Source of the DNA: a virus
Taxonomy: Duplodnaviria > Caudoviricetes
Length of the DNA: 64,000 bases
Direction: 5' to 3' (one strand)
Virus record (IMG/VR): IMGVR_UViG_3300020578_005808
Coordinates: 1 to 64,000 of that record
Program-made: the position numbers and the translations under genes
Notes under the pieces: generated by a model
The model's database searches: none
Told to the model about the DNA's origin: nothing
What the model saw: the letters and a program-made list of their open reading frames with translations, nothing else
Shown here: one piece after another, positions 672-5,878 of the stretch
Layout of the letters: each line of letters starts with the position of its first letter
Position numbering within the stretch: the stretch's first letter is position 1

Positions 672-702
672 AAAAAAAAAGAGGGAAGCTTTCGCTTCCC
701 TC
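672..702 (-). terminator. Rho-independent terminator for the 715..906 gene
   Basis: Perfect 9-bp stem GAGGGAAGC/GCTTCCCTC (681-689/694-702), GAAA loop on the minus strand, followed by 9 U (A-run 672-680). Confidence 0.9.
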
Positions 703-714
703 GGGGGTTTGATA

Positions 715-906
715 TTAACGAGTTCGACGGGTTGCTCGCTTAGCCGTTAGAGAAGTTGCGCTAGTCTCATCTGCAAATGCAAATGTAGCATTCGGCATCT
801 TCTTTGTCTCGGTACGGTATTGATTAATCTTAACCGCTCTCTCGACTCTAGCGACAGAGAACTTACCGGCATCTGACTCGTTAACTGTAATGGTATACTT
901 ATTCAT
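715..906 (-). CDS. Small basic hypothetical protein
   Basis: 63-aa ORF flanked by its own sigma70-type promoter (913-942) and terminator (672-702). Confidence 0.8.
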   Translation of the reverse strand: MNKYTITVNESDAGKFSVARVERAVKINQYRTETKKMPNATFAFADETSATSLTAKRATRRTR

Positions 907-912
907 ACAAGT

Positions 913-942
913 AAAATATGAGCTTTTATTTTAAAATGTCAA
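913..942 (-). promoter_or_regulatory. sigma70-type promoter, leaderless transcript
   Basis: TTGACA-18nt-TATTTT, ATG 6 nt after the -10 box, no SD. Confidence 0.75.
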
Positions 943-1289
943 GTTATTTTAACTGAAATTTCTTTTGGTGTTTCGCTATCTCGCTTGGGAATAAAAACAT
1001 TCAATACTCCATTTTCTAAAGACGCTGAAGTTTTTAAGGTATTTGCTATACTTGGCATTTTGTAAACAACTTCAAACTTAGAGCGCTTATTATTTTCATT
1101 CGGTTTGCCATTAATTAAAATATAATTACCTCGGCATTTTAATTCAATTTCTTCCTTTGAAAAGCCGGGAATGTCTATTTCAAAAGCATATTTATCATCA
1201 TGTTCTTTCCAATTTCCATACTCTTTAATTTCAGAGCTGATTGAATCTGGTGATGTTGATGTTGTATAAGTTGATGTTGTATAATACAT
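939..1289 (-). CDS. Small heat-shock protein (Hsp20/alpha-crystallin family)
   Basis: YAFEIDIPGFSKEEIEL and ASLENGVLNVFIPK alpha-crystallin motifs. Confidence 0.92.
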   Translation of the reverse strand: MYYTTSTYTTSTSPDSISSEIKEYGNWKEHDDKYAFEIDIPGFSKEEIELKCRGNYILINGKPNENNKRSKFEVVYKMPSIANTLKTSASLENGVLNVFIPKRDSETPKEISVKIT

Positions 1290-1300
1290 AGTGACTTACT

Positions 1301-2017
1301 TCAAGCAATTGACGTGCCAACTTTTTTGCTTGTTTTTAATAGCTTTTTGACTTTCAGAGTGTCATTTTGGCTCTCTTGCGAAATATATGTCTCATTTATT
1401 TGCTGGGCAATTTTATAAACAGCTTTGATTGCAGCTTTGTTGTTTTCTGGATTTTCGGGAGAACAATCTTGCCACTCTAGTATATAATCTGCCATTTTTT
1501 CTACTACTGGCGTATTCGTTTCTTCTTCAGCGTTAACTGGAGTTGAATATGCTTTTTTAATTCCGGTAGTTCTCCCAAAAGAAAAGTCTGAAATTAATTT
1601 AAATTTCTTAACATGAATGTGTATCCCATTATTCTTTTTAATCCATTGGCACTCGTCATCTGGATAGGTAGCGTGTCTAATATCAGGTACGCAAATAATT
1701 GTTTTTTCATTTGCTATATCAAGCATTTTCTTGTAAGCTTCTGTTGTCCAATAAGTTCCTTTTGGTTCTTGAAGTCTTTTTATCTTGCCATAAAATACTA
1801 GAAAGTCTCTAATCTTATCTTTTTGTTCTCTTGTGCAATAAAGGGGATTTATTCCAAACAAATCGACGCAAGCATCTCTACAGTCTAACTTCAACTTATC
1901 AGCTAAAGAAATTCTATAAAATTGATATTTTGTTTTTTCTAAAAAGAACTTATGCAAAATTTTGCAAACCGTATCTTTTCCATCTCCTGCTAATCCTGAT
2001 ATGCCTATTATTTTCAT
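1301..2017 (-). CDS. Deoxynucleoside monophosphate kinase (phage dNMP kinase-like)
   Basis: N-terminal P-loop IIGISGLAGDGKDT, SLADKLK, VPDIR motifs. Confidence 0.8.
   Translation of the reverse strand: MKIIGISGLAGDGKDTVCKILHKFFLEKTKYQFYRISLADKLKLDCRDACVDLFGINPLYCTREQKDKIRDFLVFYGKIKRLQEPKGTYWTTEAYKKMLDIANEKTIICVPDIRHATYPDDECQWIKKNNGIHIHVKKFKLISDFSFGRTTGIKKAYSTPVNAEEETNTPVVEKMADYILEWQDCSPENPENNKAAIKAVYKIAQQINETYISQESQNDTLKVKKLLKTSKKVGTSIA
1304..1320 (-). promoter_or_regulatory. sigma54 (RpoN) -24/-12 promoter upstream of hsp20
   Basis: Minus strand reads TTGGCACG-TCAA-TTGCT, an exact match to YTGGCACG-N4-TTGCW; ATG begins 15 nt after the final T. Confidence 0.75.
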
Positions 2018-2631
2018 TTGTTGATAAAAAAATTCCAGTCTACATGCTCGCTATAGTCAATATATTCTGGGAAAGCTATTGGAAGTAAAGGTTTTGGTTT
2101 TTTAATTAATCTTAGGCCAGCTTCTTCAGGAGTTTTGCGCCCCTTTTTAGAATTAATATCTTTGTGGCATAAAACCATATTTTCCCATGAATTCTCACCA
2201 CCTCGACTTCTAGCTATTATATGGTCAATATTAGCTTCTTCTTTTTCTAATTTTCTTCCCGTATATTGACAAATACCTTTATCACGAAGCCAAATATTTT
2301 TCTTTGATAGTTTAAATTTTTTAAATGGAATTTCCTTGTAGGTCGATGATACTAAAATAGTTGGAACTCGAATTGTCATTTTTGACGTTCGAATTTCCAA
2401 ATCACATTCCCTGATTGGAAGTCGAATCCAGTCGTTCCAGCCTAAAGCTTCTACATTTTCTATGTTTGAGTAATCAAAAGATCCATCGTCGTTAGTCTTG
2501 TATAGTATATTTAATGCAAAACAACTAGGATGAACTAATTCACTAAAAGCTTCTTTAACAGTCTTTGCCCCAATCGGTTGCCATGTTTTATTTAGGCAAA
2601 GACAAATCCTTTTATTTTCTATACCGGTCAT
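2014..2631 (-). CDS. HNH endonuclease (McrA-like)
   Basis: LRDKGICQYTG...NIDHIIARSRGGENSWENMVLCHKDINSKKG. Confidence 0.9.
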   Translation of the reverse strand: MTGIENKRICLCLNKTWQPIGAKTVKEAFSELVHPSCFALNILYKTNDDGSFDYSNIENVEALGWNDWIRLPIRECDLEIRTSKMTIRVPTILVSSTYKEIPFKKFKLSKKNIWLRDKGICQYTGRKLEKEEANIDHIIARSRGGENSWENMVLCHKDINSKKGRKTPEEAGLRLIKKPKPLLPIAFPEYIDYSEHVDWNFFINK

Positions 2632-2636
2632 TAGAA

Positions 2637-2665
2637 AAGTTAGGATTGCTATATTATAAAGTCAA
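2637..2665 (-). promoter_or_regulatory. sigma70-type promoter, leaderless transcript (HNH gene)
   Basis: TTGACT-17nt-TAACTT, ATG 5 nt later. Confidence 0.65.
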
Positions 2666-5272: not shown

Positions 5273-5878
5273 ATGAATAAAGTAAAAAAAGAAATTAACG
5301 AATCAAGTCTTATCTCCAAGATTAAAGACTCTAATTGTAACGAAAGTTTTAATAAGCTTTCTAAACTATACGATAATTTTTATTATTCTATAGCTCAAAA
5401 ATATTCTTCCGCTCTTGTTAAGGCGGGTATGAATAAGGATGACATAAAACACGAAAAAGATTTTATTCTTTTTAAAGCTATAAAGTCTTTTGATCCTTCT
5501 CAGAAAACTAAGTTCTCTACTTGGTTTTGCAACTGCACAAAATATCACTTCTTGAACTATATTAATGCTAATAAAAAATATATGTTAACAGAAGAGAACA
5601 AAATAGACTTCTTTAATAATAAAGATATATTAATGTCTTTTGATAAAAATACTGATGTCTTGTCTTATTTGAACTCTCTCCTCTCCTCATTTAAAGATGA
5701 AAGAGTTAAAAAGGTTTATGAACTTAGATATTTTTCTGGTGGTGAAAAGTTGGCTACTTGGAATTCTATAGCGAAAAAGATTGGAGTCAGTACTCAAACA
5801 GCTATTAACCTCCATGAAAAAACAAGAGTTTTTCTTAAAAATAAAATCTTAAGCAAAAATTCTTTTGATTTTGTTTGA
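5273..5878 (+). CDS. Phage-encoded sigma70-family RNA polymerase sigma factor
   Basis: Region 2 FKAIKSFDPSQKTKFSTW and region 4 HTH VYELRYF...TWNSIAKKIGVSTQTAINL. Confidence 0.8.
   Translation: MNKVKKEINESSLISKIKDSNCNESFNKLSKLYDNFYYSIAQKYSSALVKAGMNKDDIKHEKDFILFKAIKSFDPSQKTKFSTWFCNCTKYHFLNYINANKKYMLTEENKIDFFNNKDILMSFDKNTDVLSYLNSLLSSFKDERVKKVYELRYFSGGEKLATWNSIAKKIGVSTQTAINLHEKTRVFLKNKILSKNSFDFV

Follow-up and report, generated by a model that had tools for sequence, protein, structure and literature searches.

A sigma-54-type -24/-12 element at a fixed distance from the hsp20 start codon in related phages

The small heat-shock gene hsp20 of an uncultured aquatic tailed phage (Caudoviricetes; IMG/VR record IMGVR_UViG_3300020578_005808) is directly preceded by a sequence that resembles a -24/-12 promoter of the alternative sigma factor sigma-54 (RpoN) and that also encodes the end of another protein. 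Is this sequence a promoter of hsp20, or an accident of codons? In the window (positions 1 to 64,000 of the record, the whole stretch of DNA analysed here), the minus strand from 1320 to 1287 reads T-TGGCACGTCAATTGCT-TGA-AGTAAGTCACT-ATG. The 16-nucleotide (nt) element TGGCACGTCAATTGCT occupies 1304-1319 on the minus strand. TGA is the stop codon of a deoxynucleoside monophosphate (dNMP) kinase gene (1301-2017, minus strand; 238 amino acids (aa); phrog_139, E = 1e-14), and ATG is the start codon of hsp20 (939-1289, minus strand; 116 aa; PF00011, E = 4e-17; phrog_432). The hsp20 product contains the alpha-crystallin domain, with positions 2-101 of the 102 in the PF00011 profile covered. The hsp20 open reading frame (ORF) begins 11 nt past the kinase stop and, with a TAA in frame three codons ahead of its ATG, cannot start any earlier. 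A previous sequence-only reading of this DNA had claimed that the element is spelled by the terminal kinase codons, and V-G-T-S-I-A-stop does span the motif, with the last six sense codons spelling it.

The element matched all 11 specified positions of the sigma-54 consensus TGGCAC-N5-TTGCW. Its GG lies at 1318-1317 and its GC at 1306-1305, and the two dinucleotides are 10 nt apart. A search of both strands of the 64 kb returned this site as the only match without mismatch (0.03 expected; 3 of 100 shuffled sequences gave a match) and still as the only one when a single mismatch was allowed (0.79 expected). The relaxed pattern GGCAY-N6-TGCW led to the same single site. A scan of the window for further -24/-12 sites, by all three patterns and on either strand, thus revealed no second sigma-54-type site. 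Both the exactness of the match and its being the only full one, as the sequence-only reading had stated, were borne out. The element is on the same strand as hsp20, and its first base lies 30 nt before the ATG. When C1305 is taken as -12, transcription is predicted to start 12 nt further on, at approximately 1293 (1291-1295, minus strand), giving a leader of 2-5 nt before the ATG at 1289; the earlier estimate of a start about 4 nt before the ATG agrees with this placement.

To what extent is the element conserved? Exact-protein look-ups supplied DNA from the identical lineage (L007, L023-28) and from two lineages with ~87% kinase identity (L008-16 and L017-22). In the latter two, the elements read TGGCAT-GACTA-CTGCT and TGGCAT-GCCTA-CTGCT, and the kinase tails VGMTTA and VGMPTA. 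The first impression from the three closest lineages, that the site was not conserved and probably due to chance, was overturned by deeper comparison. In L029-35, which have ~47% kinase identity and an hsp20 that is 36% identical to that of the window, the kinase ends in TAG and is followed by non-coding TGGCACGGCCTCTGCT, exactly 30 nt before the hsp20 ATG. Homologues of hsp20 were gathered from viral and metagenome contigs by hsp20 alignment, blind to the motif, and the best -24/-12 match upstream of each hsp20 start was scored (threshold, E ≤ 1e-18). In each of the 45 evaluable loci, a single YGGCAYR-N4-BTGCT was present 29-30 nt ahead of the ATG and on the strand of hsp20; another three hsp20 loci, cut off ahead of the start codon, are outside the 45. 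The same motif, 29-30 nt upstream, was present at 29 of 29 loci reached via kinase or hsp20 proteins. The strand and position of the element are shared by 74 related loci. More distant hsp20 genes in other contexts had no such motif.

Among 26 distinct sequences of the element, GGCA and TGCT were invariant, and the 5-nt spacer occurred in 14 forms. The variable positions were 1 (T or C), 6 (C or T), 7 (G or A) and 12 (T, C or rarely G), and this tolerated variation follows the published sigma-54 consensus. The base preceding TGGCA was G in 17 sequences, A in 4 and T in 5. These 26 sequences were chosen by the motif; the unbiased evidence comes from the loci of the motif-blind hsp20 alignment. 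The position of the motif was constant despite hsp20 proteins only 31-45% identical and kinases ~47% identical. A distance of 29-30 nt between motif and ATG in all 26 sequences fits a constraint between start site and AUG. Two side observations concern individual loci. In the hsp20 homologue at L067:862 onward, codon 8 is a stop (MSNYTYY, then stop) and the promoter motif is intact; this copy may be a pseudogene or a sequencing error. Four short contigs assigned to 'Gammaproteobacteria bacterium' (L173-L176; G005 C239, C311, C314 and C387) end in long poly-C or poly-G after TGGCACG-N4-TTGCT; these ends look like assembly or amplification artefacts. The G005 assembly mixes contigs of 45% and 32% GC.

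The overlap with the kinase gene proved to be restricted to a few lineages. The element is non-coding in 11 of 16 representative lineages, nine of which have the kinase stop directly before the motif. The kinase stop lies 43-59 nt upstream of the motif in L068, L074 and L085, and in L166 a glycosyltransferase gene takes the place of the kinase upstream, with a 93-nt gap. The kinase ORF reads through the motif only in the window lineage, L008, L017 and L057, and the resulting tails are VG[TM]..A or SGTAFAF. The cleanest version of the cassette is found on G003:C12, where a glycosyltransferase gene is followed by a 93-nt intergenic gap, TGGCACGATTCTTGCT, 14 nt, the ATG of a 92-aa hsp20-like gene and a terminator of its own; the element lies 30 nt before this stand-alone gene. 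Conversely, L004-6 have the kinase (~52-55% identical) and lack both hsp20 and the motif, indicating that the hsp20 cassette was gained or lost as a unit. In these same lineages the kinase is followed by two small ORFs behind a TTGACT promoter. Because the element is mostly non-coding, absent without hsp20 and present without the kinase, it is constrained as DNA and not as peptide. The sequence-only reading had proposed comparing conservation of the DNA motif with that of the peptide, and the comparison came out on the side of DNA: GGCA and TGCT are invariant at 29-30 nt, whereas the spacer and the flanking proteins diverge. On the evidence of these loci, the element travels with hsp20, and its overlap with kinase codons is a lineage-specific overlay. 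In the window lineage, by the explanation favoured below, the kinase ORF has lost its usual stop and extends through the promoter, whose sequence fixes the last six residues of the kinase. Ahead of the stand-alone hsp20 promoter, the gap also contains a hairpin, TGACGC-N5-G[TC]GTCA (L166:1373-1435 and L170:735-800; the two differ at one position, a G-T wobble versus G-C), followed by an imperfect palindrome of the AAAACGCTTTAAAAGACGTTTT type; this arrangement could be a terminator or an activator site.

We favour the explanation that the 16-nt element is a working sigma-54 promoter of hsp20, not of the kinase. Judged from the comparison of loci, it is almost certainly a real and functional cis element. 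Its identity as a sigma-54 promoter is probable, and its coupling of phage hsp20 to the heat-shock activator of the host is a proposal with an even chance at best. In the mechanism that we propose, the sigma-54 form of host RNA polymerase would settle on the GG/GC pair in a closed complex, which would be opened by a host AAA+ enhancer-binding activator, probably that of the host chaperone genes. With a transcription start ~4 nt before the AUG, the hsp20 mRNA would be near-leaderless. Such a start would fit the habit of this phage, whose sigma-70-type promoters lie 33-36 nt before start codons and whose genes rarely have a Shine-Dalgarno sequence. The phage hsp20 would then respond to proteotoxic or heat-shock signalling in the host, besides any read-through from the upstream promoter. 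Sigma-54 promoters are silent until an ATP-driven activator acts on them and are the tightest on/off switches in bacteria. A gene placed behind such a promoter by a phage that has no activator must therefore listen to a host signal. The idea of the sequence-only reading that the phage plugs its chaperone into a sigma-54 stress circuit of the host is supported by the DNA-level conservation; the kinase overlap to which that reading drew attention is not the essence of the element.

Where would sigma-54 and its activator come from? The record behind L037 is a complete relative of 174.5 kb, in which neither PF00158 (Sigma54_activat) nor PF04552 (Sigma54_DBD) was detected, and the controls were positive. 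No GAFTGA motif was found in the six frames of the window. As the relative encodes neither an activator ATPase nor sigma-54, host factors would be needed. The complete relative has one promoter-like site and three relaxed matches without a start codon at promoter distance. A wider sigma-54 regulon of the phage was considered and rejected: the window has no second site, and the three relaxed matches of the relative lack properly placed start codons. Full-length rpoN was present in all four candidate donor or host genomes, namely two Flavobacterium metagenome-assembled genomes (MAGs), a Crocinitomicaceae MAG and the Gammaproteobacteria assembly, of which none is more than a candidate for the presumed host.

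The clues to the host, among them the AT-rich DNA of the phage and its scarcity of Shine-Dalgarno sequences, point, with rather better than even probability, to Flavobacteriales. The best genome matches of the GDP-mannose dehydratase (GMD) were a Crocinitomicaceae MAG (74%) and an uncultured Flavobacterium MAG (72%). In the Flavobacterium MAG, contig C12 (31.4 kb, 31.4% GC; L171 and L172) is a fragment of a related phage, with aa identities of 79% for ribonucleotide reductase (RNR) and 70% for GMD, and contig C21 (G003:C21:13660-13988) matches the dUTPase region with 69% nt identity; the rpoN locus of this MAG has 32% GC. The phage contigs binned in the MAG are circumstantial evidence of the host, or possibly a binning artefact. 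A link to Flavobacteriaceae through clustered regularly interspaced short palindromic repeats (CRISPR) or prophages was sought by comparing 20 kb of the window with 301 genomes, which gave only sugar-gene similarity and matches of 25-36 nt; 12 of these short matches were fetched, and none lay within a repeat array. The sorting domain of the type IX secretion system, used as a Bacteroidota marker, had no match, but the control genomes gave none either.

The chaperone genes of the candidate hosts were compared with the phage site. In three Flavobacteriales MAGs (L183-L185, L187-L189), groES and dnaK are preceded by TGGCAY-N5-YTGA[AC] 44-68 nt before the ATG. The 130 nt upstream contain 2-4 TGTCA/TGACA elements, where ~0.26 would be expected in each sequence. 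The arrangement resembles a heat-shock promoter combined with enhancers, the -12 base being non-canonical. The -24 block is thus the same in the phage and in these genes, and the distances differ: the phage element keeps TGCT at a fixed 29-30 nt, whereas the MAG sites lie 44-68 nt from the ATG. No clean host regulon could be defined from TGGCAY-N5-YTGCW and TGA-type sites in the Flavobacterium MAGs, where most sites other than those of groES and dnaK were intragenic or far from gene starts.

Several observations weigh against the favoured explanation. The -12 block has A in the host sites and C in the phage; none of four bacterial hsp20 genes examined in the candidate host MAGs had the motif; and the canonical TGC-type sites of these MAGs are mostly intragenic or random. 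The differing -12 base and the host hsp20 genes without the motif indicate that the phage element is no straightforward copy of the host sites that were compared. Among the closest relatives (~87% kinase identity), three-way identity at the junction is 0.6-0.75, versus 0.81 overall, and their TGGCAT-N5-CTGCT fits 9 of the 11 specified consensus positions. Translation provides two further points. In many lineages a purine-rich GAG/AAG stretch lies 6-9 nt before the ATG, and it would fall outside a transcript with a 2-5 nt leader; a leader of this length is unusual for efficient translation in most bacteria. Finally, read-through from the promoter at 2637-2665 could account for all expression of hsp20.

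The alternative that survives best, an unlikely one, is that the element is the site of another DNA-binding protein, either a phage regulator or the phage's own sigma-70-family factor (5273-5878), and that its likeness to a sigma-54 promoter is coincidental. The phage does encode a sigma factor (PF04542), the motif occurs once per genome as a dedicated operator might, and the chaperone genes of the candidate MAGs carry a different -12 block. Such a protein would, however, have to mimic each of the high-information sigma-54 positions, all of which are matched, and even the positions that vary do so in the sigma-54 manner (Y at -26, Y at -21, R at -20 and Y at -15). Two blocks 5 nt apart are also unlike the -35/-10 geometry of a sigma-70-family factor, for which neither a conserved TTGGCA -35 box (the preceding base is G, A or T) nor a -10 box at the right distance was present. 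A sigma-70 reading of TTGGCA in the window was tried and rejected: TAAGTC, 16 nt further on, is a poor match, the start would lie beyond the ATG, and the T is not conserved.

Less probable still is an element that acts in RNA. Read-through mRNA could form a 4-bp GGCA/UGCU hairpin ~15 nt before the AUG and thereby affect translation or stability, for instance by serving as an RNA thermometer; RNA thermometers control some small heat-shock genes, and the RNAalifold consensus structure is exactly the GGCA/UGCU stem. This stem has only four pairs including one G-U, with a consensus energy of -2.0 kcal/mol and no covarying pair in 16 lineages. The window sequence folds no better than its shuffles (z = +0.98), and no Rfam family was matched. 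An invariant G-U pair is contrary to what selection for a stem predicts, and the stem is clear of the start codon. The least probable explanation is a chance match without function, in which case hsp20 mRNA would arise solely by read-through from the sigma-70-like promoter upstream of HNH; the comparison of relatives effectively refutes it. In its favour, the many motif types scanned originally make an event expected 0.03 times per window less surprising, the genes lie close together on one strand and have a single terminator (681-702), and the site drifts at the background rate among the closest relatives. Yet chance would not keep GGCA and TGCT at a fixed distance from the ATG in 26 distinct sequences whose flanking proteins are 31-47% identical and whose neighbouring DNA, in most lineages, is non-coding and cannot be aligned.

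If the element is a sigma-54 promoter, activator sites would be expected ~70-100 nt before the start site. In an exploratory comparison, GAGAC (1393-1389) and TGACAC (1364-1359) were found at such positions inside the kinase tail of the window (1359-1393, minus strand). As enhancer-like elements these are speculative and only suggestive. Every lineage has G[AT]GAC(A) elements at recurring distances of ~45 and ~66-75 nt upstream of the motif. In L029-type lineages, GAGAC and GTCTC at approximately -66 and -46 from the motif form an inverted pair, with further copies besides. Codon use there is skewed. At the Glu-Thr sites of L029-type lineages the Glu codon is GAG in 12 of 12 cases, and at Lys-Ser sites the Lys codon is AAG in 7 of 7; over the remainder of these ORFs the shares are 34% for GAG among Glu codons and 39% for AAG among Lys codons. 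The counts come from related lineages and are not independent. The bias suggests a DNA-level constraint inside the coding sequence. Inverted and direct GAGAC/GTCTC repeats were also observed in the kinase tail, 40-90 nt upstream of the motif, in L029, L037, L041-46, L057, L077 and L082.

The element lies within a compact unit. HNH, kinase, hsp20 and a 63-aa ORF are arranged head to tail on the minus strand, with a strong terminator at 702-681 at the end. The HNH endonuclease gene (2014-2631, minus strand; PF13395, PF01844), the first gene of the run HNH-kinase-hsp20, overlaps the kinase start by 4 nt. Upstream-sequence comparison placed a sigma-70-like promoter, TTGACT-17-TAACTT (2637-2665, minus strand), ending 5 nt before the HNH ATG; it is a possible source of hsp20 mRNA by read-through. 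A second such promoter, TTGACA-18-TATTTT (913-942, minus strand; three-way identity 0.9-1.0 in close relatives), precedes the 63-aa ORF downstream of hsp20 (715-906, minus strand; conserved in relatives, function unassigned), and the hsp20 stop codon falls inside its -35 box TTGACA (942-937). The intrinsic terminator that closes the unit (681-702, minus strand) has a 9-bp stem with six GC pairs and a T-run, and its identity in relatives is 1.0. At its N-terminus (1245-1289, minus strand), hsp20 of the window contains a 15-nt tandem duplication (MYYTTSTYTTSTS, versus MYYTTSTS in L008 and L017), which appears as a 15-nt gap in the alignment with close relatives.

The rest of the window provides the setting. 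The phage has 31% GC (28-34% within the window), and the window encodes RNR, DnaB, a DnaE-type polymerase, UvsX, the sigma-70-family factor (5273-5878; PF04542), a sugar-synthesis cluster and very large proteins. Approximately 10 gene starts have a TTGAC[TA] box 33-36 nt before the start codon and a TAnnTT-like box ending 3-6 nt before it. Promoters of the form TTGAC[TA]-N17/18-TAnnTT were assigned to the gene starts at 906, 2631, 4323, 5910, 23259, 28506, 32477 and 36215, several with the -35 box inside the end of the upstream gene. A Shine-Dalgarno-like 4-mer (GGAG, GAGG, AGGA or AAGG, 5-22 nt before the start) preceded only 6 of 43 ORFs of at least 120 aa, a very low use that resembles Bacteroidota. 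As the promoters end 3-6 nt before the starts and Shine-Dalgarno sequences are scarce, the phage seems to make many leaderless or near-leaderless mRNAs. No cultured relative was found: GenBank phages searched with the DNA and with the kinase protein gave no match, the DnaE-type polymerase had only matches below 35% identity, and alignment of the kinase against GTDB genomes revealed no relative.

What would such a promoter mean? We propose, tentatively and at a little less than an even chance, that widespread uncultured aquatic phages, probably infecting Flavobacteriales, carry a stress-sensing sigma-54 cassette in which a canonical promoter stands at a fixed 29-30 nt from hsp20, so as to leave the mRNA almost leaderless, and is fired by the heat-shock activator of the host. 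If this is true, lytic aquatic phages tie a chaperone to the sigma-54 heat-shock circuit of the host, and the phage reads the proteotoxic stress of its host, or that of its own infection, through activator-gated promoters, a class so far undescribed in lytic phages. The same may then hold generally for hsp20 genes of phages whose hosts have sigma-54 heat-shock control. The Bacteroidota sigma-54 heat-shock circuit is largely a computational prediction, with dependence reported for few genes, and the phage element would offer a compact and highly conserved test promoter for it. The fixed spacing from the AUG would lend itself to work on near-leaderless translation of mRNAs with a sigma-54 start site, and the kinase tail would be an example of a protein whose C-terminal residues are set by a regulatory element.

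A close parallel is the predicted chaperone regulon of Bacteroidota. In a comparative study of 2025, predicted sigma-54 promoters precede the genes for GroEL, GroES, DnaK, DnaJ, GrpE and IbpA and are most enriched in Flavobacteriia; the study also states that B. thetaiotaomicron and/or F. psychrophilum depend on sigma-54 for transcription of grpE and groES (PMC12316311). The phage cassette shares with this regulon the gene class (IbpA/COG0071, GroES/EL, DnaK/J and GrpE), the sigma factor and the probable host clade; the regulon study covered bacterial genomes only and reported no phage-borne sites (PMC12316311). Seen in this way, the phage element would be the canonical form of a promoter class that its probable host uses for heat-shock genes. 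Large aquatic 'moraphages' with predicted Flavobacteriia hosts carry HSP20, DnaK and DnaJ genes (PMC12619734). They belong to another lineage of phages, one with contractile tails, whereas the present phage has a DnaE-type polymerase and very large proteins, and the passages of that paper matched by term search made no mention of sigma-54 promoters (PMC12619734). Literature searches for a deeply conserved near-leaderless sigma-54 hsp20 cassette on lytic phages returned none.

Precedents for the mechanism exist in E. coli. The small heat-shock gene ibpB, which the sequence-only reading had cited as a sigma-54 precedent, is indeed treated as a known sigma-54-controlled gene and was used as a positive control for chromatin immunoprecipitation, citing Kuczynska-Wisnik 2001 (PMC2831329). 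Like phage hsp20, ibpB is an Hsp20-family gene with a -24/-12 promoter beside another transcription route. Its site, TGGTAAATGGTTTGCT, is off-consensus and ~170-185 nt upstream (PMC2831329), whereas the phage site is an exact consensus at 30 nt and would leave almost no leader. Intragenic sigma-54 binding sites are also known in E. coli (PMC4591121), and those described there resemble the window arrangement in that a sigma-54 site lies inside the 3' end of a gene and faces the next one. Unlike these sites, the intragenic position in the phage is secondary, as the element is intergenic in most relatives. The mechanism itself is thus of a known kind, as in ibpB (PMC2831329), and its placement inside a gene has counterparts among the intragenic sites of E. 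coli (PMC4591121).

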